A DNA stretch of 42,117 nt from Actinomycetota bacterium (GTDB taxonomy: Bacteria > Actinomycetota > UBA4738 > HRBIN12), in the NCBI GenBank assembly GCA_036395715.1, contig DASWDB010000020.1, forward strand, positions 1 through 42,117, written 5' to 3'. Shown one piece after another: positions 1,625 to 15,871 of the stretch (positions within the stretch are counted from its first letter, which is position 1; each line of letters starts with the position of its first letter). A program made the position numbers and the translations under genes. Under the pieces are notes generated by a model that saw only the letters and a program-made list of their open reading frames with translations, was not told where the DNA came from and searched no databases.

Positions 1625-3639
1625 GGCGCCGAGCGGCGATCGCGTTCCTGGTGGCGCCGCCGCTCATCCTCGTGGCGGCCTGCGGCGTGAACGCCTGGGC
1701 GGGGAGGAGCTGGGTTGATCCCCTCGAATGGGCACCCCTCGCGCTGGCCTGCGCCGCCGTCGGGTCCCTCCTTTGGCTCCGGCGTGCCGGTGGGGCGATC
1801 GCCGGGCTGTTCATCTACATGGGGATCGGGCTGCCGGTCGGCACGATCGTCGAGGCGTACGCACGAGGGGCGGTCGAACACGGTCTTCCCGGGGCGTCAT
1901 GGGCGGCGTGGCTCTTCCAAACGTCCCTGGGCTTGTCGCTCGGCTTCTACCTGATCCTGCAGCTGTTCCCCACGGGCGCACCCTTGTCACGTCGATGGCG
2001 GGCCCTCGTCTGGCTCACGATCGCGACCGGGGCGGTCGTGCTCCTGACGTCGGCGCTGGGGATGACGCCCGAGTTCACGGCGAACTTCCCGGGGGTGGTG
2101 CATCCGCTCCAGGTCCTCCCCGCCGCAACAACGGATCTCCTCGACGGGATCGGCGGGGCCGGCACGTTGATCTTATTCGTCGCGTCGGCCGTCGAGATCG
2201 TCCTGCGATACCGACGCTCCGCCGGGGAGGGGCGAGCCCAGATGAAGTGGTTCGCCGCGGCCTCTGCATTGGCGGCGGGCGGTTTCATCGTGGGCTTCGC
2301 CACGCTTCCGGACAACCCGGCGATCGCCTTCGCGTTGCTCTCCCCACTGATCCCGATCGCCGCCGGCATCGCGATCCTGAAGTACCACGTCTACGACATC
2401 GACATCGTGATCTCGAAGACGGTGGTCTTCGCGTTGCTCGGCGTGTTCATCGCGGCCGTCTACGTGGCGATCGTGGTCGGGATCGGGACCGTCGCCGGCA
2501 ACACGACGAGCCCCGCACTCTCGATCGCCGCCACCATCCTGGTGGCGGTGTTGTTCCAGCCAGTGCGGGTGCGCGCGCAACGCCTGGCGAACCGGCTGGT
2601 CTACGGCGAGCGGGCCACGCCGTACGAAGTGATGGCGGGCTTCTCCGGACGGGTCGCTGACGCCGTTTCGACCGACCGGGTCCTGCCGCAGATGGCCGAG
2701 GCGGCGGGCCGGGGGGTCGGAGCCGTCGAAGCGTCTGTTCGCGTCCGTCTGCCCGGTGGGCTCGAGCGGGTGGAGCGGTGGTCGGCGCCGGGCGCCACCA
2801 CGGACCGCGTCGCCGAGCCGTTGACGATCACGATCGGTTATCAGGGAGAACCCGTAGGGGACCTGAGCGTGACGAAGTCGCCGACCGACCCCTTGACGCC
2901 GGCGGAGCAGGTGCTCCTGCGCGATCTTGGCGCGCAAGCGGGGCTGGCGCTGCACAACGTCCGATTGTCCGAAGAGCTCGAGACGCGTCTGCGCGAACTG
3001 GACGTGCAGGCCGCGGCGCTGCGCCTGTCGCGTGAGCGCCTGGTCACCGCGCGCGACGCGCAGCGCCGCGGCCTCCAGCGCGATATCCACGAGGGACCCG
3101 AGCGGCAGCTGCTCGACATCCGGCAGCGGCTCCACCAGGTACGCGATGCCGACGAACTGGACGAGCTGATAACGCAGACGAACGACACCCTCGACGGGCT
3201 CCGCGACCTGGCGCGCGGGATCTTCCCGCCGCTCTTGGCCGAGCAGGGTGTCGTCGCCGCGCTCCGAGCCCATATCCGCAAGACGGGGGCGAACGCAACG
3301 GTCGAAGCGGGGCTCGGCTTCGACGATCAGCGCTTCGACGCCGACACCGAGGCGGGTGTGTACTTCTGTTGTCTCCAAGCGATCCAGAACGTGATCCGCC
3401 ATGCGAACAATGCGCCGTGCGTGGTCGCGCTGTCCCGCGATGCGGACGCGATCGCGTTCGAGATCCGCGATGCCGGCCCCGGGTTCGATGTCGCGACCAC
3501 GCCGCGTGGCATGGGCCTGCAGATCGTCCAGGATCGAGTCGACGCACTCGACGGATCCCTGGAGGTCGCAAGCGGCCCGGGACGAGGGACGCGGGTCGCC
3601 GTCCGCCTGCCTATCCGAGAGCTGGAGTCGGTCGGATGA
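1621..3639 (+). CDS. Sensor histidine kinase paralog 2 (HisKA_3 type, divergent DHp)
   Basis: 672-aa ORF. Multi-TM N-terminus with LFPTGAPLSRRWR and ILKYHVYDIDIVI motifs, then RLANRLVYGERATPYEV and a GAF-like region. Divergent H-box LQRDIHEGPERQLLDI, N-box QAIQNVIRHA, G1 DAGPGFD, G2 GMGLQ. ATGA overlaps occur at both ends (1621-1624, 3636-3639). Confidence 0.88.
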   Translation: MRRRAAIAFLVAPPLILVAACGVNAWAGRSWVDPLEWAPLALACAAVGSLLWLRRAGGAIAGLFIYMGIGLPVGTIVEAYARGAVEHGLPGASWAAWLFQTSLGLSLGFYLILQLFPTGAPLSRRWRALVWLTIATGAVVLLTSALGMTPEFTANFPGVVHPLQVLPAATTDLLDGIGGAGTLILFVASAVEIVLRYRRSAGEGRAQMKWFAAASALAAGGFIVGFATLPDNPAIAFALLSPLIPIAAGIAILKYHVYDIDIVISKTVVFALLGVFIAAVYVAIVVGIGTVAGNTTSPALSIAATILVAVLFQPVRVRAQRLANRLVYGERATPYEVMAGFSGRVADAVSTDRVLPQMAEAAGRGVGAVEASVRVRLPGGLERVERWSAPGATTDRVAEPLTITIGYQGEPVGDLSVTKSPTDPLTPAEQVLLRDLGAQAGLALHNVRLSEELETRLRELDVQAAALRLSRERLVTARDAQRRGLQRDIHEGPERQLLDIRQRLHQVRDADELDELITQTNDTLDGLRDLARGIFPPLLAEQGVVAALRAHIRKTGANATVEAGLGFDDQRFDADTEAGVYFCCLQAIQNVIRHANNAPCVVALSRDADAIAFEIRDAGPGFDVATTPRGMGLQIVQDRVDALDGSLEVASGPGRGTRVAVRLPIRELESVG

Positions 3640-5723
3640 GCGACACGGATCGCGAGCGCGCGAACGCACGGAGGATCGCGATCGGGCTCGTCGCGCTCTT
3701 CGTCGCGCTCTGGGTGATCCGTCTGATCCTGGGCATCGCCACCGGCAGCCTGACCGACCAGTCGAGCTGGATCCTGGACCTGATCTTCGACGCCAGCGCG
3801 ATCGTCTTCTCCACGTTGATCCTGCTCGTCGGGTGGGCGATCGTGACCCGACAGCCGAGGAACACGATCGGCTGGCTCCTGATGCTGATCCCGATCCTCG
3901 GGATCCTCGGATTCGTGGTCGGCGATTACGCGACCCAGGCCCTCGCGACCCACCCGGGATCGCTCCCGTTCGGTCGGGTCGCCGCCTGGTTCGATCGTTG
4001 GCTGATCGTCGCCGTCCTCGCGATCTTCATCCCGTTGTTCCTGTTGTTCCCTGACGGGAGGCTCCCGTCGCGACGGTGGCGCCCGGTCCTGTGGTTCACG
4101 ATCGCCGCCACGGTCGTCACCGTGGTCGGGTTCGCCGTGACGCCGGGACGCTTGACCGGCGCCTTCTCCGACCTCACGAGCGTCACGGTGACGAACCCGC
4201 TCGGCATCGATGCGTTCGCCGGGTCGATCGATGTCATCACGCAGCTCGCGGGGATCGCGATCGTGATCAGCGCGTTCCTCGCAGGTGCCGCCATCGTCGT
4301 CCGGTTCCGGGGGGCATCGGGGGAGGTCCGTCAGCAGATCAAGTGGCTCGCGTTCGTGGGGGCCGCGCTCATGGTCGAGTTCGTCGTCGGGATCGTGGTA
4401 ACGGCGATCGTGGGCGACCGGTCCAGCTCGTCGGACACCGTCGGCAACATCCTGTTCGCGATCTGGACCCTCACGCTGCTCGGTGGGATCCCCGTCGCGT
4501 GCGCCATCGCGATCCTCAAGTACCGCCTCTACGACCTCGACGTCGTGGTCCGCAAGGCCGTGGTCTTCGGCCTGCTGGCCGTGTTCATCACCGCCGTCTA
4601 CGCCGCGATCGTCGGCGTGCTGACCACCCAGGTGAGCTCGGCGATCGGCTCGTTCGCCGCGGCTGCGACCTTGGCGGTCCTTTTCGCGCCGGCACGCGAT
4701 CGTGCACGGAGACTCGCCGACCGCCTCGTCTACGGGAAGCGAGCAACCCCGTACGAGGTCTTGGCGGACTTCTCGAGCCGGGTCGGCGAGGCCTATGCCG
4801 CCGACGACGTCTTGGATCGGATGGTGGGCGTCCTGGCCAACGGGACCGGAGCCGAGGTTGCGACCGTCTGGCTGAACGTCTCGAACGACCTCCGGCCCGC
4901 AGCGACGTTCCCCGAGGGAGCCACGCCGGCCGAAGGGACCTCGGTCCCCGTCGTGCATCACGGGGAGGAGCTGGGTGCGCTCTCGATCAGGATGCCCGCG
5001 TCCGACCCGGTCGATCCAACCAAGCGGAAGCTCGTCGAAGACCTCGCGGCGCAGGCGGGTCTGGTGCTCCGGAACGTCCGCCTGATCGAAGAGCTCCGCG
5101 CGTCGCGGCAACGGCTCGTGGCCGCGCAGGACGAAGAGCGGCGCAAGCTGGAACGCAACCTCCACGACGGCGCGCAGCAACAGCTCGTGGCGCTTTCGGT
5201 GCAGCTCAAGCTTGCGGAGCAGCTCGCGGGCAAGGACACCGAGAAGGAGCGAGCACTGCTCGCGAGGCTTGCCTCCCAAGCGAACGGGGCCCTCGCGGAT
5301 CTCCGCGACCTGGCGCGCGGGATCTACCCACCCTTGCTGGCGGACAAGGGGCTGGCCGCGGCGCTCGAGAGCCAAGCGCGGAAAGCCGCCGTGCCCACGA
5401 CCGTCGAAGCCGATCGCATCGGGCGTTACCCGGAGGAGATCGAGTCGACGATCTACTTCTGCACCCTCGAGGCGCTCAACAACGTCGCGAAGTACGCAGA
5501 AGCCGGTCGCGCGATCGTGCGGCTGTCCCAGCCGGACGGCCACGTCGAGTTCACGGTCGACGACGACGGGCGTGGGTTCGATGCCGCTGCGTCGAGCTAC
5601 GGCACCGGCCTGCAGGGGATGGCCGACCGCTTGGATGCGGTCGGCGGCGAGCTGCGGGTCGAGAGCCGTCCGGGGCACGGCACGAGCGTCACCGGGCGGG
5701 TGCCGGTCGGAGAGGCGCGATGA
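3636..5723 (+). CDS. Sensor histidine kinase paralog 3 (HisKA_3 type)
   Basis: Start chosen at ATG 3636 (MSDTDRERANARR...), in frame with track ORF 3369..5723 and overlapping the HK2 stop as ATGA. Motifs: TRQPRNTIGW, LFPDGRLPSRRWR, ILKYRLYDLDVVV, RLVYGKRATPYEV. A GAF-like region follows. H-box RLVAAQDEERRKLERNLHDGAQQQLVAL, N-box LEALNNVAKYA, G1 DDGRGFD, G2 GTGLQGMADR. Confidence 0.9.
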   Translation: MSDTDRERANARRIAIGLVALFVALWVIRLILGIATGSLTDQSSWILDLIFDASAIVFSTLILLVGWAIVTRQPRNTIGWLLMLIPILGILGFVVGDYATQALATHPGSLPFGRVAAWFDRWLIVAVLAIFIPLFLLFPDGRLPSRRWRPVLWFTIAATVVTVVGFAVTPGRLTGAFSDLTSVTVTNPLGIDAFAGSIDVITQLAGIAIVISAFLAGAAIVVRFRGASGEVRQQIKWLAFVGAALMVEFVVGIVVTAIVGDRSSSSDTVGNILFAIWTLTLLGGIPVACAIAILKYRLYDLDVVVRKAVVFGLLAVFITAVYAAIVGVLTTQVSSAIGSFAAAATLAVLFAPARDRARRLADRLVYGKRATPYEVLADFSSRVGEAYAADDVLDRMVGVLANGTGAEVATVWLNVSNDLRPAATFPEGATPAEGTSVPVVHHGEELGALSIRMPASDPVDPTKRKLVEDLAAQAGLVLRNVRLIEELRASRQRLVAAQDEERRKLERNLHDGAQQQLVALSVQLKLAEQLAGKDTEKERALLARLASQANGALADLRDLARGIYPPLLADKGLAAALESQARKAAVPTTVEADRIGRYPEEIESTIYFCTLEALNNVAKYAEAGRAIVRLSQPDGHVEFTVDDDGRGFDAAASSYGTGLQGMADRLDAVGGELRVESRPGHGTSVTGRVPVGEAR

Positions 5724-7960
5724 CCGCTCGAACGGCGACGCTGATCTCTCGGATCGTGATCGGGCTCGGGCTCCTGATGATCGCGGTCGCGATCCTCGTG
5801 AGCCGAACGACGACGTGGCGAGCGGATCCCCACGAGATCGTGGTGATCCCCCAAGGACTCACGTCTCGGGTCGTCGACGCCGCGGCGACCCTTCGGAACG
5901 ATCCCGAGGCTGCGACGGACCCATCGCTGGCCGACGCGCCCGAGGTGATGCAGCACGAGCAGGACCGCGTGGCGCAGGGCGTGAAGCTCACGACCACGGC
6001 CAACTCCCCGGGCGCGGGCATCGTCTTGGTGGTCAGCCTGCTGTGGATGGGGACGGGGAGCGTGATCGTCTCCCGGCAACCTCGCAACCTGGCCGGGTGG
6101 GTGTTCCTCGCGCTCGGCTTCTTGATCGTCCTGGAAGGACTCAGCCAGATCATGGTGTTCGCCGCGTTGAAGGCGGATGCAGGCATCCCACTCGTGTCGG
6201 CATGGGCCATCGCGGGCGAATACGCGGTCTTCCCCATGGTCCTGTTGCCCCTGTTGTGGCTGCTCTTCCCCGACGGCCGGCCGCCCTCGCCACGGTGGCG
6301 CTGGGCGGTGCGCGGGTTCGTCGTCGCGGTGGGAGTCGCCTTGGCCGCCTACGTGGTCACGCCCGGGCCACTGAACAACTTCGTGGACTTCGGGGTCCTG
6401 TACATGAACCCGCTGGCAGTGTCAGCTTTGTCGGGGATCGCGCCCGCGATCACCGGCATCGGCGGCATGATCGCGTTGATCCTCGGGATCGCGACGATCT
6501 TCGGCGTTCGAGGTCGATTCAAGCGGGCGACCGGCGATGAACGGCAGCAGCTCCGCTGGCTCGTCTTCGTCACGACGCTCGCGGGAGTGCTGTTCTTCGT
6601 CATCTTCGGGAGCGGGCTCATCGCCGAGCAGGTCTTCCATCATCCGAACCCGCATGTGGGCGGCGTCGATGTCTTCGACCTGCTGTTCGGCCTGTTGGCG
6701 GGGCTGATCGTGCTCGGGATCCCCGGTGCCTATCTGATCGCGATCTACCGCTACCACCTCTGGGACCTCGACGTCGTGATCAAGAAGGCGCTGGTCTTCG
6801 CCGTCGTGGCGGGAGGTCTCACGGTCGTGTCGCTCGGCGTGCTCCTGCTTCTCCCAGTGCTGGTCGTCGGAACCGGCCTGACGTCCACGGAGCGTGGCGT
6901 CTTCGTCGTCGGGGTCGTGATCGGAACGCTGTTCGGTCCGCTTCGGCGTCTCGCGCGGCGAGCCGCCGACCGCGCCGTGTACCACACGCGGGCGACCCCG
7001 TACGAGGTTCTCACCGAATTCAGCGGCCGCGTCGGCGAGACGTACGCGACGGACGATGTGTTGCCGCGTATGGCGCAGATCCTCGCGACCGGCGCCGGCG
7101 CGTCGTCGGCCCGGGTGCTCCTCTCGGTTGGGGGCGACCTGCGCGAAGCCGCCGCGTTCGGCGGACCTGTGAACGGAACGGAACATCTCGTCGCGGTCAC
7201 GCACCAGGGCCGAGAGCTGGGAGCGCTCGCGGTGACGATGCCGGCTAACGATCCGATGGATCCGACCAGGGAGAAACTCGTGCACGATCTCGCCGCCCAG
7301 GCGGGACCCGTGCTGCGGAACGTCGGACTGATCGAGGAGCTCCGGGCGTCACGTCAGCGCCTCGTCGCCGCCCAGGACGAGGAGCGACGCAAGATCGAGC
7401 GAAACCTCCACGATGGCGCTCAGCAGCAGCTGGTGGCGCTCGCGGTGCAACTGAAGCTGCTGGAGCAGACCGCGGGGAAGGATCCCGACCGCGACCGGCG
7501 GCTCGCCGCGACGCTCGGCTCCCAGGCCAGCGCGGCGCTCGAGGACTTGCGCGATCTGGCCCGGGGGATCTACCCGCCGCTCCTCGCCGACAAAGGTCTG
7601 TCCGCCGCGATCGAGGCGCAGGCGCGCAAGGCGGCCATCCCGGTGGAGGTCGGATCGAACGTCGCCGCGCGGTACCCACGAGACGTCGAGTCCGCCGTGT
7701 ACTTCTGCATCCTCGAAGCCCTGAACAACGTGGCGAAGTACGCGCAGGCGACCAGCGCCACCGTCACCCTCGCTCAGGCGGACGGCCACCTCACGTTCGA
7801 GGTCAGCGACGACGGAGCGGGGTTCGATCCCGACGACGCGCGCAACGGGACCGGGCTGCAAGGGATGGCCGACCGCCTCGATGCGATCGGAGGTTCGCTC
7901 ACGATCCGCAGCGTCCCCGGACTGGGCTCGACCGTCGGGGGCACGGTACCCATCTCCTAG
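5720..7960 (+). CDS. Sensor histidine kinase paralog 4 (HisKA_3 type)
   Basis: Start chosen at ATG 5720 (MTARTATLISRIV...), in frame with track ORF 4076..7960 and overlapping the HK3 stop as ATGA (5720-5723). Motifs: SRQPRNLAGW, LFPDGRPPSPRWR, IYRYHLWDLDVVI, RATPYEV. A GAF-like region follows. H-box RLVAAQDEERRKIERNLHDGAQQQLVAL, N-box LEALNNVAKYA, G1 DDGAGFD, G2 GTGLQGMADR. Confidence 0.9.
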   Translation: MTARTATLISRIVIGLGLLMIAVAILVSRTTTWRADPHEIVVIPQGLTSRVVDAAATLRNDPEAATDPSLADAPEVMQHEQDRVAQGVKLTTTANSPGAGIVLVVSLLWMGTGSVIVSRQPRNLAGWVFLALGFLIVLEGLSQIMVFAALKADAGIPLVSAWAIAGEYAVFPMVLLPLLWLLFPDGRPPSPRWRWAVRGFVVAVGVALAAYVVTPGPLNNFVDFGVLYMNPLAVSALSGIAPAITGIGGMIALILGIATIFGVRGRFKRATGDERQQLRWLVFVTTLAGVLFFVIFGSGLIAEQVFHHPNPHVGGVDVFDLLFGLLAGLIVLGIPGAYLIAIYRYHLWDLDVVIKKALVFAVVAGGLTVVSLGVLLLLPVLVVGTGLTSTERGVFVVGVVIGTLFGPLRRLARRAADRAVYHTRATPYEVLTEFSGRVGETYATDDVLPRMAQILATGAGASSARVLLSVGGDLREAAAFGGPVNGTEHLVAVTHQGRELGALAVTMPANDPMDPTREKLVHDLAAQAGPVLRNVGLIEELRASRQRLVAAQDEERRKIERNLHDGAQQQLVALAVQLKLLEQTAGKDPDRDRRLAATLGSQASAALEDLRDLARGIYPPLLADKGLSAAIEAQARKAAIPVEVGSNVAARYPRDVESAVYFCILEALNNVAKYAQATSATVTLAQADGHLTFEVSDDGAGFDPDDARNGTGLQGMADRLDAIGGSLTIRSVPGLGSTVGGTVPIS

Positions 7961-7979
7961 GGCGCCCACACGTCGGCCG

Positions 7980-9530
7980 TCAGGACGGTCCCCCGCCCGT
8001 CACCGGCAGAACGCCCGTGACGCGGGTGCCTTTCCCGACGGCCGAATCCACGCGGAGCGACCCGCCCAACGCTCCGAGCCTGTCCACCATGTTCTGGAAA
8101 CCGGCGCCCATCCCCTTGCCCCGCACATCGAAGCCGGCGCCGTCGTCGCTCACCGTGAAGACCAGGCCGGCTTCCTCCTCGCGAACATCCACCGTCACGG
8201 ACGCCGCTTCCCCCGCGTACTTGCCGGCATTCTGGAGCGCCTCGAGGACGCAGAAGTAGACCGTTGCCTCGGCTTCGGCCGGATAGCGTGTGAGGTCGTC
8301 CGTGCGGACCATCGTCGGCCGGACCGCACGCCGTGCCGCTGAGGCGAGGGCCTCCTTGAGCCCCTTGTCCGCGAGCAGGGGTGGGTAGATCCCGTGGGCG
8401 AGGTCGCGCAGCTCCTGCAGCGTGTCGTCGACCGCCACCGACAGGCCGTCGAGAACCTGGACCGCCCGTTCTGGATCAGCGTCGAGCATCGTCCGGGCGA
8501 GCTTCGCCTTGATGCCGAGCGCCACCACGTGCTGCTGTGCTCCATCGTGGAGGTTGCGCTCGATCTGGCGGCGGGCCTCGTCGGCGGCCGCGACGATCCG
8601 TCCGCGTGACGCTTGCAGCTCCTCGGCTTGGCGACGCACTTCGTCGAGCGAAGCCTGGAGCGCGGAGTCGAGCCGCGCGTTGTGCAACGCCACGCCGAGC
8701 ATCCGCCCCAACTCGATGACCGTGCGCTCCTCCTCGGGTGAGAAAGAATCGGCAACCGTGACCGCGCGCTCCACCACGATGACGCCCTGAAGCTCCCCGG
8801 CGTGTGACATCGGGGCCATACGGACGAACGCGTCCTCGCGACCCTCGAGCATCGCCGGGAGCCACACCTTCATCCACCCGTGGCCGGAGAGGCCCGCCTG
8901 GACGACCGTCCCAGGATCGAGTCCACGCAACTGCATCGGCGGCGGCCCGAAGTCCGGATCGCCGATCCACGGGTGGAGTGTCCCCTCATGCACGGTCCAC
9001 AGCTCGACGGCCTGCAGGTGCAGCTCCGCTCGAAGGGACTCGGCGACCTGCAGCGCCAACTCATCCAAGGGGACCGCGCGCGTCATGCGCGACGTGAGCG
9101 TCCGCACGAGGTCACCGTCCGCGCGATGATCCCTCGCGACGAACCGGCGGGCAGCCCGTTCGAGGCGTGGGTATAGGGAGCGATACGCGAGGGCGGCGAA
9201 CGAAACGACGAGGAGCGCAAGCCCGAGGAACCACCGCTCGCCCTCGACCGGGCTTCGTCCTGCCAGGAGGAGCACGGCGGCATACGCACCGGCTGCGACC
9301 ACGAACAGCCCCGCCAGCGACACCGACGCGACGAAGGCGCCGTCGGCCGCGTGGGCAACCCATCCTCCGCGCAGCGAGAGCCCTGCGGGGACGACGGCGA
9401 GGAGACCGGGCGTTCCCGCGAGCCAAAGAGGCCACGTCCACCCGAGCAGACCGCCGAAGAGCGAGGCGACGCCGACCCCGACGAGCGACACCACGAGCCC
9501 GCACGCCAGCCACTTGGCCCACGCGTGCAC
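7980..9530 (-). CDS. Sensor histidine kinase 5 (HisKA_3 type), last gene of the ABC-transporter operon
   Basis: Start chosen at GTG 9530 (VHAWAKWLAC...), 2 nt after the TAA stop (9533-9535) of the upstream permease. A different, shorter TM sensor is followed by a GAF-like region. H-box RIVAAADEARRQIERNLHDGAQQHVVAL, N-box LEALQNAGKYA, G1 DDGAGFD, G2 GMGAGFQNM. The track ORF 7980..10811 simply runs on upstream, overlapping the permease gene in another frame. Confidence 0.85.
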   Translation of the reverse strand: MHAWAKWLACGLVVSLVGVGVASLFGGLLGWTWPLWLAGTPGLLAVVPAGLSLRGGWVAHAADGAFVASVSLAGLFVVAAGAYAAVLLLAGRSPVEGERWFLGLALLVVSFAALAYRSLYPRLERAARRFVARDHRADGDLVRTLTSRMTRAVPLDELALQVAESLRAELHLQAVELWTVHEGTLHPWIGDPDFGPPPMQLRGLDPGTVVQAGLSGHGWMKVWLPAMLEGREDAFVRMAPMSHAGELQGVIVVERAVTVADSFSPEEERTVIELGRMLGVALHNARLDSALQASLDEVRRQAEELQASRGRIVAAADEARRQIERNLHDGAQQHVVALGIKAKLARTMLDADPERAVQVLDGLSVAVDDTLQELRDLAHGIYPPLLADKGLKEALASAARRAVRPTMVRTDDLTRYPAEAEATVYFCVLEALQNAGKYAGEAASVTVDVREEEAGLVFTVSDDGAGFDVRGKGMGAGFQNMVDRLGALGGSLRVDSAVGKGTRVTGVLPVTGGGPS

Positions 9531-9532
9531 GG

Positions 9533-11992
9533 TTATTCCGCCCGGAGGACGGCGGCCGGCCGCGTCCGCCGGGCCGCGATCGCGGGCCCGAGGCCCACGA
9601 CCACCGCAAGCCCGATCGTCGCGGGGATCACGAGTGCGACGGCCCCCCACGCGATGACCGGCTCCACGATGACCCCGAGCCGGTCGGCGAACAGACCCCA
9701 CGCCAACCTCCCGAGCAAGATGCCGGTCGGCACGCCGATCGCGAGCGCGACGGCGGCCAGGGTCGCCGATTGCCATGCGACGGTCCACATCACCTGCCCT
9801 CGCTTGAACCCGAGCGTACGCAGGATCGCCAGATCGCGACGCCGTCGCCGCACGGAGGAGATCAACAGGTGGACGAGCGTGCCCAACGCGACGACGGCGA
9901 ACAACGCGGCCAACAGGAGCGGAAGCCGCTCCGACCGCAGCGCATCCCGCACCCGGAACCCCTGCGATCCGACGTCGCCTTCGACGGTGTTCGCGCCGAG
10001 CGGGTCCAAGACCCGGTTGACGCGCTCGTAGGTCGCCGACACATCCGCTCCGCGCGCGAACGTCGCGAGGACCAGGTTCTGGGTCGCATCCGGATAGAAC
10101 ACGTGGAGCCCGTCCATCGTCATCCCCGCACCCTGTCCCAGCCCGGTGCCGAAGCCGATGTCGGGGAAGACCGGGATGCCGACGACGGTCATCGGGATCG
10201 TCGTCTGACCTGCCTGAACCTGAACCTGGTTTCCGATCCCGACCCCGAGGGCCCGCGCGGTCTCCTGACCCAACGCCACTTCGTCGGACCGGTCGGGCCA
10301 GCGTCCGTCCCGCATCGACGTGTGCACGAGGGGCCCGCGGAGCGGCTCGAGAGCCCACGCGAAGACGTGTGCGCTGCCGCACGGGCCAGCGACATCCAGC
10401 GCGTTCTGGAAATTGCCGGCGGTCACGGCGTCGAACCCCGGATCCCCCTCCACCGCCGGGACCGCCTTGTCCTCGAAGCGGCTGCCGATGTAGGGGTGCC
10501 CGGCTGCGAACGCGAAGTCCACACCCCACAACCTGGGCGTGCTGCCGAAATGAACCGCACTCGCCGCGAACCCGAACGCACCGACCATCGCCGCCACGGC
10601 GATCGCGAGTCCGACCACGGCGCTCCGAACGGGGACCGCCGTTCGCCCGTGCCCGGGCTCGAGGGCCAGTCGTGAACCGGCGACCGCGGTCGGGGGCATC
10701 CCCACCCGAGCGAACGCGGCCGCGATACGCGACGGCCGCTCCGCACCGGCAAGCTCCGCCGTCCCCAGCACACCGGCGCGGGCCCCGGCCATGCGCCACC
10801 CCGTGATCCATGAGACGAGCACCGCACCCGCGGCGATGAGGCCGCCACCGATCACCAGGATCTCGCCGTCTGCGTGGATGCCCGGTGTGGGCTCGATGAA
10901 GCGCGCGAAGCCGAGCGGCGTGAGCGGCGACACCGCGATCGTCGCGATCACCGCGATGAGAGCGCCGCCGATCCCGACGATCGCGCCGGGGATCAGCGCC
11001 GCGTTCGCCACCTGACGCCGCGTCATCCCGAGCGCGCGAAGGATCGGATCCTCGTTGGCGCCGAGCACGATCCGTCGCACGAGCGCCTGTCCGAGAACGA
11101 GGGCCCCGGCCAGGGCCACGAGCACCCCGAAAAGCCTGGCCACGATCGCGACGAGGTGCGTCTTGCCCGAGGCCGCCGCGGCCTCGTCGGACAGGTTGAA
11201 CGAGTTAACGCCCGGCCGGATGGAGGACACGCCACGCAGGAACGGGTCGACGTCGTGGAGGCCACCACGGAGATGGAACACTCCCTCCGTGCAACTCACG
11301 GTTCCCCGTCCGTAGGTCTGGACGAACGCCGCAGATGCCACGAGACCGTTGTCGTCCCCGCTCAACCCGCCGAAGGGGATGTACTCGCCGACGACGCTCA
11401 AACGCACCGGGGGCAGGAACGCCCCCTCCGGGGGCTCACCTCCGCCCGTGTAGCGGATGGCGCGATCGAGGTGACGGACGTTCACGAGACGTACGACCAC
11501 GGTGTCTCCGACGTGCGCGCGTGGCCCGTCCGTGGTCCCCCATCCGATCGCAACCTCGTTCGCCCGCTCGGGAGCTCGGCCGTTCAAGAACAGCGGCGAG
11601 CCGAGCTCCTGTAGGCCTCCCGGCGCCGTCGGGGCTTCCATCGACCCTTCGGGGGAATCTCGGTAGAAGAGGGGTGTCTTCCCGTCTGCAGCGAAGAAGA
11701 GCCCCACCGGCGTGACCCACGCGCGAGCCCACGACGCCACCTGGGGAAGTTTCGCCGCCTGTTCGAAGGGTGCCGCCGCCCCGAAGCCCAACGCCGGCGG
11801 GCATCCGATGAGCACCACGTCGGGCTCGCGGGTCGCCGCTCGATACCGGTCGTAAGCGGAATCCGTCCGCCGAGCCGCCGCCACCGACGTCATGGCTGCG
11901 GCCCCTGCGAGACCCGTGAGCACCGTGAGCACGATCAAGGACGTTCGCCGCGTGCGCATGTCGGCTCGCGCGCGCATCCCGAACGCGCTCAT
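9533..11992 (-). CDS. ABC transporter permease with two FtsX-type domains (MacB-like fused permease)
   Basis: 819 aa. N-terminal TM, a large extracytoplasmic region, and two blocks of four TM helices, each preceded by the LRALGMTRRQV / LRTLGFKRGQV type FtsX signature. The ATG overlaps the ATPase stop (ATGA, 11989-11992). Confidence 0.85.
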   Translation of the reverse strand: MSAFGMRARADMRTRRTSLIVLTVLTGLAGAAAMTSVAAARRTDSAYDRYRAATREPDVVLIGCPPALGFGAAAPFEQAAKLPQVASWARAWVTPVGLFFAADGKTPLFYRDSPEGSMEAPTAPGGLQELGSPLFLNGRAPERANEVAIGWGTTDGPRAHVGDTVVVRLVNVRHLDRAIRYTGGGEPPEGAFLPPVRLSVVGEYIPFGGLSGDDNGLVASAAFVQTYGRGTVSCTEGVFHLRGGLHDVDPFLRGVSSIRPGVNSFNLSDEAAAASGKTHLVAIVARLFGVLVALAGALVLGQALVRRIVLGANEDPILRALGMTRRQVANAALIPGAIVGIGGALIAVIATIAVSPLTPLGFARFIEPTPGIHADGEILVIGGGLIAAGAVLVSWITGWRMAGARAGVLGTAELAGAERPSRIAAAFARVGMPPTAVAGSRLALEPGHGRTAVPVRSAVVGLAIAVAAMVGAFGFAASAVHFGSTPRLWGVDFAFAAGHPYIGSRFEDKAVPAVEGDPGFDAVTAGNFQNALDVAGPCGSAHVFAWALEPLRGPLVHTSMRDGRWPDRSDEVALGQETARALGVGIGNQVQVQAGQTTIPMTVVGIPVFPDIGFGTGLGQGAGMTMDGLHVFYPDATQNLVLATFARGADVSATYERVNRVLDPLGANTVEGDVGSQGFRVRDALRSERLPLLLAALFAVVALGTLVHLLISSVRRRRRDLAILRTLGFKRGQVMWTVAWQSATLAAVALAIGVPTGILLGRLAWGLFADRLGVIVEPVIAWGAVALVIPATIGLAVVVGLGPAIAARRTRPAAVLRAE

Positions 11993-12744
11993 GACGAACC
12001 GTCGTCCCCAAGCACTCCGAACACGCCCCTCGGTGCGACGGCAGGTTCCGCGTCATCGTCGAGTCGACCGTCCTTCATTCGGACGACCCGTGTTGCGGTC
12101 GCCGCCACGACCTCGTTGTGCGTGACCATGACGATCGTCTGTCCGTCGGCGTGCAATCGTCGGAATAACTCGAGCACCTCGCCGCCGCCGGCAGAGTCGA
12201 GCGAACCGGTGGGCTCGTCCGCGAGCAGCAGGGTGGGAACGTTCGCCAACGCACGTGCGATCGAAAGGCGCTGACGTTGGCCCCCCGACAAGACACCAGG
12301 CGACTTCGCCGACTTGTCCGCTATCCCCAGCAGGTCCAAGAGGTCGCGAGCGCGCGTCTCCGCCTGCTTGCGAGGCCGCCCCGCGACGACCGCCGGGAGC
12401 GCGACGTTCTCGAGCACCGTCATCCCCTCCAACAGGTTGAAGAACTGGAAGACGATCCCGATGTGCCGTCGCCGCATCACCGCGAGATCGTCCTCGGACA
12501 GGCCCTCGAGCGACTCTCCCGCGACCCGGATCTGCCCGGCCGTTGGCCTATCCAGGCCGGCGATCAGGTTCAGCAGGGTCGACTTGCCGCACCCGGACGG
12601 GCCCATCACCGCGATGAATTCTCCTGCCGAAACCGCGAGGTCCAGGCCCCGAAGCGCCCGCACGGGGATCTGCTCGTCATCGGGAGCATCGAAGGTCTTC
12701 CGGAGCCCCTCGACCTCGAGTGCATCGACCGTGGCCGGGTCCAT
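11989..12744 (-). CDS. ABC transporter ATP-binding protein (MacB/LolD-like)
   Basis: Walker A GPSGCGKST, Q-loop, ABC signature LSGGQRQRLSIARAL, Walker B LLLADEPTGSLD, H-loop VMVTHN. Confidence 0.93.
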   Translation of the reverse strand: MDPATVDALEVEGLRKTFDAPDDEQIPVRALRGLDLAVSAGEFIAVMGPSGCGKSTLLNLIAGLDRPTAGQIRVAGESLEGLSEDDLAVMRRRHIGIVFQFFNLLEGMTVLENVALPAVVAGRPRKQAETRARDLLDLLGIADKSAKSPGVLSGGQRQRLSIARALANVPTLLLADEPTGSLDSAGGGEVLELFRRLHADGQTIVMVTHNEVVAATATRVVRMKDGRLDDDAEPAVAPRGVFGVLGDDGSS

Positions 12745-12793
12745 GCCTGGAGGCTAGGCCGTGCCTGGGTCGCCGTCGACGGGAAGGGCACCA

Positions 12794-12806
12794 CTCCCGC
12801 CGGGAG
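12794..12806 (-). other. Palindrome CTCCCG-C-CGGGAG between the REC gene and the ABC ATPase gene
   Basis: 13-bp perfect palindrome sharing the CTCCCG/CGGGAG arms with the 13261-13276 palindrome. The loop is too short for a good hairpin, so it fits a dimeric protein operator better. Confidence 0.3.
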
Positions 12807-12819
12807 GCAGGCACCCGCA

Positions 12820-13191
12820 TCAGACGTGGGTGGCGGCCTCCCAAGCGGTCTCGAGACGGTCCGGGCCGAAGACCGCCTTAGGGATGTATGCGGCCGCGCC
12901 GCATTCAGCAGCGCGGGGCGCGTATTCCTCTTCCTCGTACGTCGAGAGCAGCAACACCACGGGTGCCCCCTCGGCGGCGAGGATGCGGCGGGTCGCTTCG
13001 AGCCCGTCGATCCCGGGCAGGTTCACGTCCATCAGCACGAGGTCGGGTGCGAGGTCGGCCGCCATCGTCACGGCGTCCTCGCCGGTCTCCGCCTCTCCGA
13101 CGACGTCGAATCCATCGGTGACGTCGACCACCATGCGCGCGGCAAGCCGGAAGGGCTCTTGGTCATCGACGATCAACACACGAACGGGCAT
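12820..13191 (-). CDS. Stand-alone receiver-domain response regulator (NarL-type REC, no output domain)
   Basis: Start chosen at ATG 13191 (MPVRVLIVDDQ...), preceded by GGAGATCCAG; the track start 13251 adds 20 non-REC residues. Acidic pocket DD, phospho-acceptor context LVLMDVNLPGIDG, LLLST and IPK motifs. The protein stops after the receiver, and only 75 nt remain before the next gene, so there is no room for an HTH. Confidence 0.85.
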   Translation of the reverse strand: MPVRVLIVDDQEPFRLAARMVVDVTDGFDVVGEAETGEDAVTMAADLAPDLVLMDVNLPGIDGLEATRRILAAEGAPVVLLLSTYEEEEYAPRAAECGAAAYIPKAVFGPDRLETAWEAATHV

Positions 13192-13234
13192 CTGGATCTC
13201 CAGGTCAAGCGTCGCAGAGGACCTCGCGGCTGAC

Positions 13235-13276
13235 AGTGGTGCCAGCACCACTCCGAGACGCTCCCGCGCGCGGGAG
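13235..13276 (-). terminator. Two adjacent GC-rich inverted repeats just downstream of the Pro-rich protein gene
   Basis: A perfect 16-bp palindrome, CTCCCGCGCGCGGGAG (13261-13276), begins 5 nt after the stop. It is followed by AGTGGTGC-ca-GCACCACT (13235-13252). There is no U-tract, so the terminator role is tentative. Confidence 0.3.
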
Positions 13277-13280
13277 GAGC

Positions 13281-14660
13281 TCAGGATGGATGCTGCTCGT
13301 CCGCTTCGCGGCGCTCCTTCGAACCCGGCTTCTTGAGCGCGGCGGTTCTCGCAAGTTTCGCGCGCAGGTCGCCCGGAGCGTCGGTGGGACCGTGTTCGGT
13401 CACGGGTTCCACGAGCCGGTCGAGCATGTCCGAGGCCGATTCCTTGCCGCTCGACGTCCGGGCGTGCTGCAGTTCGGGGACGATCACGACGGCGGGCCTA
13501 CCGATCGCAGGGGTCGGTTCGGCGTCCGCGACGGGTGCGGGCTCAGGTTCCCGGGTGACGATCGGCTCAGGCGCGGGAGCCGGTTCCGGCGGTGGAACGA
13601 TGGGGGCCGGCTCGGGCTGCGGTGTTTCCGCGACGTGTGCAGGCGCGACCGGCTTCGGAGCCGGAACCGCCACGGGTCTCGGCTTGCGCTTCGGCGCTCG
13701 TTCTTCCTTGGGAACCCGCGGCGCTCGGCGGCGTCGTGCGGGGGCCGGCTCGGGCTGCGCCGCCTCGACGACCTCGGAAAGCGGCGGCTGCGGCTCTGGC
13801 ACGGGCATCCGACGGCCCGGTGTCGCGAGCGCAGCCAGAGCTTGCTGCAGTTGGCCTTCGCCACGGAGGCGTTCGGCCTCGCTCTCCTCCAACTTGTGCT
13901 GGAGCGACGTGACGCGTTCCTTGATGCGACCGCCCGCGTGTTGGATCTCGACGGCGCGATCGGCATCCATCAGCGTGAGGTATCTCGGCACCGACTCGGG
14001 GTAGAAGGGCACGCCGGTCCCGATCTTCGCCGCCGGCTCGCGCATCGACAAGAACGAGAAGGTCAAAGCCAACAGGAAGCCGAGGCCGAGCGCGATCTGA
14101 TAGCCCAGCCATGCGAACCGAACGTCCGAGGTCAGCGTCGCGTCGCGGTACTCGAACTGCGTGACGAGGGACCGTCCCCCGATCGCCGTGTACGAGTAGT
14201 AGGTCGCGGGCCCGGGCTCGTTCGTGGGTGTCCGCTTCGTGACCACCCACGTCGGGCCGCCGGCTGCTTGGATCGCCGCGTCGATGTCGCGGTCGTTCAG
14301 CGAGTGAGCGGAATCGAGTGGCTCGTGAAGCGAGGACCACAGCAGGAAGTGTTGCTGGGACCAGATCCGGACCGCCCTGATCCGGGTGTCGTTCACGAGG
14401 ATCTCGTCGCGAACCTCCTTGGTCAGCGAGTCGCTCAGCGATCCCGTGATCGGCGCCGAAGCCGAGGCCGACGCGACGCTCGGCGCGATCACCCGTTGGC
14501 TGAGGGCGGCATCGACCGCCGCTGTGTCGCGATGCCGCGCGGCGACCGCGCGGTGCTCGGCGGGGAACGTCACGACGAACAGGACGAGGAGCACCATGGT
14601 GAAGGGCCACCACACCTTGGCGCTGACGTCATCCAGCGTGAACCGGTCGATGAAGCGCAT
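13281..14660 (-). CDS. Hypothetical two-TM membrane protein with coiled-coil and Pro-rich (PEPAP-type) cytoplasmic tail
   Basis: Start chosen at ATG 14660 (MRFIDRFTLDD...), preceded by GAGGAGGGACGCCAGGGGG. The upstream part of track ORF 13281..15719 overlaps holB, on the same strand but in another frame. TM1 WWPFTMVLLVLFVV, then a ~170-aa extracytoplasmic segment, then TM2 LGYQIALGLGFLLALTFSFL. A heptad-like segment (KERVTSLQHKLEESEAERLRGEGQLQQ) and a P/E/A/K-rich low-complexity region follow. I recognised no known domain. Confidence 0.6.
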   Translation of the reverse strand: MRFIDRFTLDDVSAKVWWPFTMVLLVLFVVTFPAEHRAVAARHRDTAAVDAALSQRVIAPSVASASASAPITGSLSDSLTKEVRDEILVNDTRIRAVRIWSQQHFLLWSSLHEPLDSAHSLNDRDIDAAIQAAGGPTWVVTKRTPTNEPGPATYYSYTAIGGRSLVTQFEYRDATLTSDVRFAWLGYQIALGLGFLLALTFSFLSMREPAAKIGTGVPFYPESVPRYLTLMDADRAVEIQHAGGRIKERVTSLQHKLEESEAERLRGEGQLQQALAALATPGRRMPVPEPQPPLSEVVEAAQPEPAPARRRRAPRVPKEERAPKRKPRPVAVPAPKPVAPAHVAETPQPEPAPIVPPPEPAPAPEPIVTREPEPAPVADAEPTPAIGRPAVVIVPELQHARTSSGKESASDMLDRLVEPVTEHGPTDAPGDLRAKLARTAALKKPGSKERREADEQHPS

Positions 14661-14755: not shown

Positions 14756-15871
14756 CTACCTGCGTTCCTCGACCGAGAGCTGCAAGAACGCTCGTTCCAC
14801 GACGAGCCGGGGGTTGAGGTTGACGTCGTCGGCGAGGGCCGCCCTCGCCTCCTCCATCGCCGCGATGCCCGCCACGGTCCTCGTCGGCGAGCGTTCCTCG
14901 GGTGCCTCCCGGTCCGGGTTCAACAAGGCGTCGGCGGTCACCCCCGTCCCGGCGGCGACGGCGTCGCGCAGCAAGGCCGACGCCGCCATCAGCACGCGAT
15001 CGAGGTGATCTCGTTCCGCTCGACGCTCCCGGCGGTGGAACCGGGTCTCGATCCTCCGGATCGAGCCCCGGTAGGCCTCCTCGGGCCGTCCCTTCTCGTC
15101 GAGGAACGGCGCGAGCTCGGCATCGAGTTCGCGCGCCAGTCCCTTCTTGTGCTCGGCCGCCGCCGCGATCACCGTGTCGGCGGCCTCGAGCGCGCCAGCC
15201 GGTCCCGCGGATCCGAGCTCGAGCGCGTGCGCCGCCACATCGCGGAACGCGAGCCCGTCCTCGTCCACGGCCATCCGCCGTGCGCGGCCGAGGTTCCCGC
15301 CCGCAAGTCGGGCCGCGAGCCGTGCCCGGGCCCGCGCGATGCCCTCGGCCTCGAGCTGTTCGACCACGAATGGCTCGCTGAGCGCCGTGAAGGTCACGAC
15401 GTGACACCGGCTCCAGATCGTCTCCGGGAGCTCGTGCGCCCGCGCGGAGAGCAGCAGGAAGACGGCATCCGCGGGAGGCTCCTCCAGGACCTTGAGCAGC
15501 GTGTCGGCGGCTGCGGGCGAGAGCCGGTCGGCCTCGCGGATCAGGAACACCTTCCGGCCGGGCTCCGGCGCGGTCAGGTAGGCGGGATGCCACACCTCGT
15601 CGCGCACCGTCTCCACGTGGATGTCGCGTCCCTCGGGCTCGACCACGAACTCGTTCGGATGCCGGTCGTGGAGCGCGAGACGGCAGTCGCGGCACTCGCC
15701 GCACCCGCCGTTCGCACACAGGAGCGAGGCCGCGAAGGCACGGGCGGCGAGCGACTTCCCTGAGCCTTCGGGCCCGGCGAAGACGTAGGCGTGATGCGGA
15801 CGTTCGGCCGCCCCGCGGAGGAACGCCATGGCGGCGTCCTGTCCCGGAACCTGGTCGAGCACGGTCTGCAC
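14756..15871 (-). CDS. holB: DNA polymerase III subunit delta prime
   Basis: HAYVFAGPEGSGKS Walker-type box, zinc-module-like CANGGCGECRDC, KVFLIREADRL, LLKVLEEPP, SRC motif (WSRCHVV). It sits downstream of tmk, as is typical in Actinobacteria. The start is uncertain: GTG 15871 (VQTVLDQVPGQD) or ATG 15829. Confidence 0.85.
   Translation of the reverse strand: MQTVLDQVPGQDAAMAFLRGAAERPHHAYVFAGPEGSGKSLAARAFAASLLCANGGCGECRDCRLALHDRHPNEFVVEPEGRDIHVETVRDEVWHPAYLTAPEPGRKVFLIREADRLSPAAADTLLKVLEEPPADAVFLLLSARAHELPETIWSRCHVVTFTALSEPFVVEQLEAEGIARARARLAARLAGGNLGRARRMAVDEDGLAFRDVAAHALELGSAGPAGALEAADTVIAAAAEHKKGLARELDAELAPFLDEKGRPEEAYRGSIRRIETRFHRRERRAERDHLDRVLMAASALLRDAVAAGTGVTADALLNPDREAPEERSPTRTVAGIAAMEEARAALADDVNLNPRLVVERAFLQLSVEERR

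Follow-up and report, generated by a model that had tools for sequence, protein, structure and literature searches.

We analyzed a stretch of 42,117 nt (hereafter the window) that makes up the entire contig DASWDB010000020.1 (C20) of an Actinomycetota metagenome-assembled genome (MAG; GCA_036395715.1; 2.14 Mb in 211 contigs, 76% complete) and has a GC content of 69%. On its minus strand, the window encodes a stand-alone receiver of 123 amino acids, designated REC-only (12820..13191). Judged from its homologs, REC-only is a member of a real, ancient, and unusually conserved family of single-domain receivers from which no helix-turn-helix (HTH) domain has been lost, and it is most likely not a transcription factor. 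We consider it rather probable that REC-only is the second, output-less receiver, acting at the protein level, of a branched HisKA_3/NarL-type system with many kinases and two receivers. As far as gene content can tell, the system is conserved across Actinomycetota and is also present in some MAGs labelled Dormibacterota or Chloroflexota.

A conserved family of stand-alone receivers

Pfam recognized Response_reg alone in REC-only (residues 5-116, E = 1.7e-23). GerE, the C-terminal HTH domain of LuxR-type regulators, was not found in the protein by Pfam, and a genome-wide GerE search gave no match on C20. Only 75 nt (12745-12819) separate REC-only from the next gene, which encodes an ABC transporter ATPase, leaving no space for an HTH domain. 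The phospho-acceptor residues (D9, D10, D55, S83/T84, and K105) were at least 95% conserved among 81 family members. Re-alignment placed the T/S position at S83, not T84, and a reading of dephosphorylation speed from the D+2 and T+2 residues was then dropped. The family is further marked by the motifs VDDQxPFRxAAR, LSTY, and F-PD-L--W. When 5.8 billion proteins were searched, more than 120 clusters of REC-only at 86-100% identity were obtained, all of ~123 amino acids and with Response_reg only. At the genomic loci, the reading frame stopped 0-26 residues past the receiver domain in 88/88 homologs of at least 55% identity, and GerE was found only in an outgroup locus of 47% identity (L089).

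The best named matches of REC-only in PDB and NCBIfam were the receiver domains of LuxR-family regulators, VraR, NarL, and UvrY, and the nearest solved structures were ordinary receiver domains of LuxR, NarL, VraR, and PdtaR. No curated NCBIfam family was matched, the scores being far under every cut-off (e.g., 83 versus 280 bits). In a receiver-domain tree, REC-only formed a single clade with 100/100 support and a long stem among LuxR-type receivers. This clade was distinct from that of the co-localized LuxR-type regulators, indicating that REC-only is not a recent copy of a regulator that lost its HTH.

Two sets of homologs were distinguished. In the close clade (~32 species, all uncultured Actinomycetota), REC-only is 76-89% identical to that of the window; in the distant group (Nocardioides, Kribbella, other Propionibacteriales, Acidimicrobiia, and Dormibacterota- or Chloroflexota-labelled MAGs), it is 55-72% identical. 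REC-only is the most conserved gene of the close-clade neighborhood: median identities to the window were 82.8% for REC-only, 74.5% for TopA, 67.5% for HolB, and 37-48% for the kinases, and REC-only exceeded TopA in 22/22 comparisons. Such extreme constraint fits a protein with many partners.

The original prediction, made from the letters of the window alone, had described a NarL-type receiver with all phospho-acceptor residues and no HTH, which need not be a transcription factor; these results agree with it. It had also allowed for a sequencing or assembly error that hides a fused HTH domain. The same stop in independent assemblies and the separate clade argue against such an error.

Two more receiver domains in short frames (144 and 183 amino acids) are encoded elsewhere in the same genome, at C183:6935-7270 and C138:18787-19107. 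They grouped with OmpR-type receivers on long branches and may be single-domain receivers of another type.

Gene neighborhoods of REC-only in relatives

Neighborhoods were tabulated by BLAST of six-frame open reading frames (ORFs) against the window proteins. In the close clade, the gene order is topA, a gene for a major facilitator superfamily (MFS)-thymidylate kinase (tmk) fusion, holB, sometimes a gene designated X, and REC-only, followed by a convergent array of 2 to at least 5 tandem histidine kinase (HK) genes of the type of HK1 to HK4 of the window, often 0-25 nt from REC-only. Nothing separates REC-only from the array in, for example, L009, L021, and L027; the interval holds an M36 peptidase gene in L004 and other genes in L022 and L032, and L001 has no kinase array near REC-only. 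At the far upstream end of the array stands the gene for a regulator with receiver and GerE domains (REC+GerE), then a divergent REC-HTH-cyclase gene and more kinase genes.

In the distant group, a LuxR-type regulator gene is followed by REC-only and two convergent kinase genes, with the 3' ends often overlapping; the regulator gene lies directly upstream of REC-only in Nocardioides, Kribbella, Acidimicrobiia, and Dormibacterota. A divergent ABC-FtsX pair lies beyond the kinase pair in Propionibacteriales. A convergent HisKA_3 kinase was the next recognized gene downstream of REC-only in ~65 of 86 loci, often with a 3' overlap. A comparison of the neighborhoods of REC-only orthologs had been proposed with the original prediction. 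It confirmed the association with convergent HisKA_3 kinases but placed a canonical regulator in the same locus.

A LuxR-type regulator at the head of the kinase array in relatives

With the regulator of L019 as query, 12/12 close-clade genomes yielded a REC+GerE regulator that heads the kinase array and shares its contig with REC-only; these orthologs are 77-87% identical. In G001, for example, REC-only lies at ~669.4 kb (+), the regulator at 679.9-680.6 kb (-), and the REC-HTH-cyclase gene starts at 680.6 kb (+). The array-head regulators and the regulators of the distant group formed one clade in the receiver tree, and the recognition helix of their HTH, (T/S)ERAVEKHI(N/G)S-F-KL, is almost invariant in both groups.

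The usual divergent neighbor of the array-head regulator, REC-HTH-cyclase, is a conserved protein of ~490 amino acids with a receiver, an HTH-like linker, and a class III nucleotidyl cyclase-like part (C198:1-1147, L014, L017, L018, L024, L027, L030, and L037). The cyclase-like part, at the C-terminus, carries the motif FQGDAVMAVFGAP, the start codons of the two divergent genes are only ~30-45 nt apart, and more kinase genes follow.

In the genome from which the window comes, no ortholog of the array-head regulator was found; the best match (C162) was 48-51% identical and has its own kinase. An ortholog of REC-HTH-cyclase (70-74% identical) starts truncated at base 1 of another contig of this genome, C198. 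In ENA, a contig of the same species (L006) is broken close to the same point as the window. By contrast, two metagenome contigs covered the region upstream of HK1: L091, with 86% DNA identity to window positions 309-2993, carries two extra kinase genes upstream of the HK1 ortholog, and in L092 a regulator gene is followed directly by a kinase gene and an HK1-like kinase gene. Together with the synteny of the relatives, these contigs indicate that the array has more than five kinases and that the assembly gap preceding window base 1 most likely holds the canonical regulator, with further kinase genes. Longer contigs of the same species were also sought: the exact 32-mer of window bases 11-42 was not matched in JGI metagenomes, a degenerate-pattern metagenome scan gave three relatives, none of the same species, and an exact-protein look-up of HK2 gave none on record.

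The original headline, five kinases for one output-less receiver, thus dissolves, since a canonical regulator exists in the relatives and is seen directly in L092. The number of kinases had been underestimated as well, with at least two more upstream of the HK1 ortholog in L091. The accompanying statement that REC-only is the only receiver in 13 kb is correct for the window as assembled, but the window is the complete contig of a fragmented MAG and is therefore uninformative on what lies upstream of HK1. A genome search for orphan LuxR-type regulators had also been suggested. The genome encodes about a dozen other REC+GerE regulators, and the search did yield three tandem LuxR-type regulator genes with no adjoining kinase (C63:866-3049; two with weak receiver scores of 27.7 and 33.1 bits). 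These were rejected as the missing partners, being long branches only distantly related to the array-head regulator clade.

Canonical kinases and paralogs without histidine

The plus-strand array of the window comprises HK1 (2..1624), of which the 5' end is lost at the contig start, HK2 (1621..3639), HK3 (3636..5723), and HK4 (5720..7960), linked by ATGA overlaps. HK4, the final gene, encodes a multi-transmembrane (TM), GAF-like HisKA_3 kinase, of which HK3 is a paralog. It converges with HK5 on the minus strand (7980..9530; GTG start; HisKA_3 and HATPase_c in Pfam), the two stops being 19 nt apart (7961-7979). ORF listing, translation, and Pfam reproduced the previously described gene layout, with its gaps, overlaps, and convergence, at every coordinate.

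We aligned the dimerization/histidine phosphotransfer (DHp) and catalytic (CA) domains of 143 kinases from REC-only loci. HK1, HK3, HK4, HK5, and their relatives everywhere share a common, almost invariant DHp helix, HDGAQQ(Q/H)(L/V)VAL. HK2 is a divergent paralog with a remodelled DHp helix (RDIHEGPERQLLD). Of the five HisKA_3 kinases counted originally, HK1, HK3, HK4, and HK5 were recognized as such, and HK2 fell below the Pfam threshold, although the alignment showed that it retains its histidine (H489) and the N, G1, and G2 boxes. The DHp helix of the HK2 type reads (H/R/S)EGPERQL. Its histidine is kept in the window, L009, and L004; R or S takes its place in L010, L012, L022, L032, and L041, and L023 and L040 have similar variants with R. 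The ATP-binding boxes (N, G1, and G2) are intact even where R or S has replaced the histidine. As judged from these residues, HK2-type paralogs without histidine could serve in ATP binding or in the in-trans phosphorylation of a partner subunit.

Among distant-group loci, at least 25/34 have no histidine in the kinase convergent on REC-only, and 23/23 have it in the second kinase. The nearest kinase of Propionibacteriales carries A, S, or G at this position and has also lost all three boxes (N, G1, and G2); that of Acidimicrobiia carries D, I, N, or R and has intact boxes. The alignments indicate that the stand-alone receiver is repeatedly accompanied by a divergent kinase paralog that usually cannot be phosphorylated. 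Pfam scans of the window proteins detected no Hpt domain.

REC-only and a His-less kinase gene overlap at their 3' ends in L048, L052, L057, L062, L067, L071, L073, L074, L076-L078, L080, L082, and L085, with ORF-boundary offsets of 7-81 nt. Such overlaps could couple the expression of the two genes via antisense transcription.

Predicted promoter and operator of REC-only

Upstream of REC-only on the minus strand, we identified a Shine-Dalgarno sequence (GGAG, 13198-13201), a predicted extended -10 element (TGCGACGCT; 13208..13216) of the pattern TGnnAnnnT, and a -35-like CTGTCA (13231-13236). The latter is overlapped by an 18-bp inverted repeat (AGTGGTGCTGGCACCACT; 13235..13252), a predicted operator over the -35 region with its center near -42.5. 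The T, G, A, and T of the -10 pattern are invariant in 32 species. The repeat has the consensus AGTGGTG-CTGG-CA(C/T)(C/T)ACT, lies 45-70 nt upstream of the REC-only start (32 loci), and occurs once per 20-kb locus, with a single copy in the genome of the window. Its spacing to TGnnAnnnT is fixed at 17-18 nt in 31/32 species (alignment A1), and a variable 10-27 nt separate TGnnAnnnT from the ATG. In the distant group, GTGTGG-AAAA-CCACAC-like repeats are found in the same place.

These features predict that REC-only has its own extended -10 promoter with an operator. Class II activators such as LuxR bind at a center near -42.5. With the repeat centered there, the level of REC-only would be set by a dimeric DNA-binding protein, for which the LuxR-type regulator of the system, acting in a feedback loop, is the obvious candidate.

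An RNA hairpin was considered as well, since the variation in the close clade is all C to T in the 3' arm, which is compatible with G-U pairing. It was rejected because the spacing of the repeat is fixed to TGnnAnnnT and variable to the start codon, because the distant group has uncompensated G-A and A-A oppositions, and because transcription is predicted to start downstream of the repeat. A sigma-54 promoter (TGGCAC...) was also rejected: the genome is without Sigma54_DBD, and the -12 element does not fit. Rfam gave only chance-level matches on 12700-13400.

Proposed mechanism

From the anatomy, conservation, and synteny of the locus, the loss of histidine in the paralogs, and the promoter-like element, all observed directly, we infer phosphotransfer, a mode of action for REC-only, and the identity of the operator-binding protein as follows. 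The canonical membrane kinases HK1, HK3, HK4, and HK5, together with paralogs beyond the contig end, would be the inputs and would phosphorylate REC-only at D55 in parallel with the LuxR-type regulator. The latter, encoded at the head of the kinase operon, would be the transcriptional output. REC-only would act on the kinase layer at the protein level, without DNA binding, and the divergent HK2-type paralog, its histidine lost in most genomes, would form another part of the system. REC-only would be transcribed from its own promoter, and binding of the regulator at the repeat would close the feedback loop.

As to how REC-only acts, we tentatively favor competition for, or drainage of, phosphoryl groups (a sink), because helix alpha1 of REC-only and the canonical DHp helix are invariant, whereas the His-less DHp helix varies by lineage. 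A second option follows from Caulobacter crescentus, in which DivK~P is bound by the pseudokinase DivL (PMC5361649). By analogy, phosphorylated REC-only might dock on the His-less or HK2-type paralog; the tight, ancient adjacency of the receiver and the His-less paralog points to this read-out, which we regard as less likely than a sink. Doubtful to a greater degree is a complete circuit of DivK/DivL-style "reverse signaling" in HisKA_3/LuxR-type systems across Actinomycetota. In such a circuit, a His-less, multi-TM, GAF-like paralog would read REC-only~P and switch the true kinases between kinase and phosphatase activity, and the LuxR-type regulator would drive the REC-only promoter via the -42.5 operator in a feedback loop.

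Several observations weigh against the branched system or against parts of it. The position of the regulator in the assembly gap of this genome is inferred from relatives. HK2 of the window keeps its histidine and every ATP-binding box, so the pseudokinase argument is drawn from relatives, and no HK2-type gene was found in the arrays of L021 and L028 (visible within 10 kb; several close-clade cases). Moreover, the His-less DHp helix differs between lineages (EGPERQL, SREVLPHL, and DSGPQQQ) and helix alpha1 of REC-only is conserved; docking on the invariant canonical DHp helix therefore fits better than a DivL-like contact. Helix alpha1 of REC-only (QEPFRLAARMVV) is also unlike that of the regulator (NYLVREGTAALL), so the two receivers need not share kinases. 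Finally, no second copy of the inverted repeat was found near the divergent regulator and REC-HTH-cyclase genes.

An alternative to the branched system is an MrrA- or Spo0F-like phosphorelay hub, in which the sensor kinases would phosphorylate REC-only, and the phosphoryl group would pass to the histidine of HK2, serving as a histidine phosphotransferase, and on to the LuxR-type regulator. Consistent with a relay, the histidine is kept in the remodelled DHp helix of HK2 in the window, L009, and L004, and REC-only is very highly conserved, as a hub would be. There is also the precedent of MrrA, which is fed by at least six kinases and from which PhyK takes phosphate and passes it on (PMC5964349). 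However, most HK2-type orthologs and the nearest kinase in at least 25/34 distant loci have R, S, D, A, G, N, or I instead of histidine, which excludes a relay as the conserved function. In some arrays no HK2-type gene is seen, and the canonical kinases and the regulator already form an ordinary pair. We therefore consider a relay unlikely.

The ABC-FtsX-HK5 cassette

In the window, three genes lie between REC-only and the kinase array in one operon. The first encodes a MacB-type ABC transporter ATPase (11989..12744, minus strand; 251 amino acids; ABC_tran PF00005, E = 2.4e-36). It overlaps by 4 nt (ATGA, 11989-11992) with the gene for a duplicated FtsX permease with a MacB periplasmic core domain (9533..11992, minus strand; 819 amino acids; two PF02687 and PF12704, MacB_PCD), and 2 nt further follows HK5. 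Hydropathy showed ~8 hydrophobic segments and two big extracytoplasmic regions in the permease, and a short membrane anchor in HK5, with hydrophobic segments split by short loops only. The module thus combines an ABC ATPase with an FtsX permease that has an extracytoplasmic domain and a kinase that has no extracytoplasmic sensor domain. Bce/MacB-type modules likewise encode an ABC ATPase together with a short-loop kinase and an FtsX permease bearing a large extracytoplasmic domain. The cassette of the window has the same parts but differs from these modules in that it is without a cognate DNA-binding regulator, its kinase is of the HisKA_3 type with a GAF-like linker, and it appears as an accessory input.

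The cassette was found between REC-only and the array in the window, L006, L011, and L038 and upstream of REC-only in L016; only a remnant of HK5 was present in L041. In L038, the cassette alone fills the interval from REC-only to the regulator, and the HK5-type kinase is the sole kinase there. Comparison of these loci indicates that ABC-FtsX-HK5 is accessory and that its position varies between genomes. The cassette adjoins no receiver other than REC-only in the window, and the same holds for those in L011, L016, and L038. In the gap between REC-only and the ABC gene, scans for consensus promoters and terminators, which are weak in GC-rich DNA, and folding gave nothing above shuffled sequences (z -0.06). 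ABC-FtsX-HK5 is probably transcribed from the REC-only promoter in this species. The same DHp type and the arrangement in L038 suggest that HK5 with ABC-FtsX is best seen as an extra, transporter-coupled input to the same two receivers.

REC-only had originally been placed in a transporter operon. The link to ABC-FtsX-HK5 and to HisKA_3 kinases does recur, but REC-only is not specifically a gene of such operons: it has holB (or X) as its conserved upstream neighbor and the convergent kinase array as its downstream one, with the cassette between them only in this species and a few others. This bears on the possibility that REC-only is the dedicated receiver of the cassette, a protein-protein effector acting, for example, on the transporter, and not a transcription factor. 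The genes for REC-only, ABC, FtsX, and HK5 run in the same direction at spacings of 75, -4, and 2 nt without a detectable terminator, the cassette has no regulator of its own, and such cassettes recur beside REC-only (L011, L016, L038, and L041), with ABC and FtsX genes flanking the kinase pair in Propionibacteriales. Nevertheless, most of the ~32 close-clade species and many distant ones have no transporter beside REC-only. The receiver is also far more widespread and more conserved than the cassette (77-89% identity, versus 70-77% for ABC and 40-47% for FtsX), the locus of the relatives includes a canonical regulator, and the DHp type of HK5 is that of the array kinases. A dedicated role of REC-only in the cassette thus appears improbable.

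Upstream genes

The genes upstream of REC-only on the same strand are X (13281..14660), holB for DNA polymerase III delta' (14756..15871; PF13177; start codon uncertain, with candidates at 15829-15871), the MFS-thymidylate kinase fusion gene, and topA. X encodes a two-TM protein with a coiled coil, a Pro-rich tail, and an extracytoplasmic domain of ~150 amino acids; neither Pfam nor NCBIfam gave a match. X was confined to L001-L009, L013, and L014 (35-40% identity), and elsewhere holB is directly followed by REC-only. This restriction to the nearest relatives of the window indicates that X is not a conserved partner of the receiver.

The adjacency of holB (or X) and REC-only, with gaps of 69-139 nt in ~30 species, could mean that REC-only is tied to the housekeeping cluster topA - MFS/tmk - holB, e.g., in signaling to replication or nucleotide supply, with the kinases incidental. 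Outside the close clade, however, REC-only follows a LuxR-type regulator gene and not holB, the convergent kinases remain, and REC-only has its own predicted promoter, which makes a housekeeping role very improbable. Decay of a LuxR-type regulator by frameshift, assembly error, or recent truncation is hardly credible: relatives are annotated as "response regulator transcription factor" or "DNA-binding NarL/FixJ family" and the closest solved structures are NarL/LuxR-family receiver domains, but the stop is at the same position in all 88 homologs from independent assemblies, identical REC-only sequences occur in several independent metagenome contigs, only 75 nt follow in the window and a convergent gene follows within 0-25 nt in relatives, and the clade is separate and ancient, with GerE only in the outgroup.

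Comparison with known systems

In CheY-type phosphate sinks, such as CheY1 of Sinorhizobium meliloti, an output-less second receiver competes for phosphoryl groups. These sinks and LovK/LovR (PMC5964349) resemble the proposed system in that an output-less receiver tunes an output regulator. They differ in operating in chemotaxis or general stress with other kinase classes, and for REC-only a sink role is proposed.

The single-domain receiver MrrA of C. crescentus, which is phosphorylated by at least six kinases, also offers a likeness: a stand-alone receiver is central to a many-kinase network, one kinase-like protein is not a kinase, and a canonical regulator is the output (PMC5964349). In contrast, MrrA works with HWE/HisKA2 kinases and PhyR partner switching, and PhyK keeps its relaying histidine, whereas the REC-only system is of the HisKA_3/LuxR type, is clustered in one locus, and has divergent paralogs mostly without histidine. 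DivK and DivL likewise pair a single-domain receiver with a kinase homolog whose phospho-accepting histidine is replaced, the DivL fold reading the phosphorylated receiver (PMC5361649). In DivL, which controls CckA during cell-cycle signaling, Tyr stands at the His position, whereas R, S, D, A, G, N, or I is found in REC-only loci. Unlike DivL, the putative partner paralog of REC-only is multi-TM and GAF-like, its Propionibacteriales copy has also lost the ATP-binding boxes, and its window copy keeps the histidine. AbrC1/AbrC2/AbrC3 of Streptomyces coelicolor is similarly an atypical actinobacterial system with more than one adjacent kinase per response regulator (PMC4428217), but it has two kinases and no stand-alone receiver, as opposed to at least five kinases, a divergent or His-less paralog, and a second output-less receiver.

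None of the compared systems unites HisKA_3/LuxR-type signaling, a tandem kinase array, an often His-less paralog, and a separately promoted stand-alone receiver, and full-text literature searches gave no description of such a stand-alone receiver family in Actinobacteria. Single-domain receivers and pseudo-histidine kinases have been well studied almost only in Alphaproteobacteria and chemotaxis. Without the one-receiver headline, there is still an auxiliary receiver family that is well defined, testable, and unusually conserved. This uncharacterized family, conserved beyond topoisomerase I, occurs in uncultured soil Actinomycetota, Nocardioides, Kribbella, Acidimicrobiia, and Dormibacterota-labelled MAGs; its companions are a LuxR-type regulator, one to eight paralogous kinases, and frequently a His-less paralog. 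If the proposed mechanism is true, it would offer a tractable system for the funneling of many sensors to one output and its tuning by a second receiver; cultured Nocardioides and Kribbella carry orthologous loci, which makes such tests feasible. The results also call for caution in genome scans, because "orphan" kinases and missing regulators at the ends of MAG contigs are often assembly boundaries and not biology.

Additional observations

The locus contigs L026, L042, and L069 were binned as Gemmatimonadota, Chloroflexi, and Kiloniellaceae MAGs, respectively. The locus is typically actinobacterial and L026 retains the full tmk-holB-REC-only synteny; mis-binning is likelier than transfer. 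In L024 (491-6255), from a long-contig MAG, topA, MFS/tmk, and holB are each broken into several frames, which looks like homopolymer or indel errors of long-read assembly and not pseudogenes.

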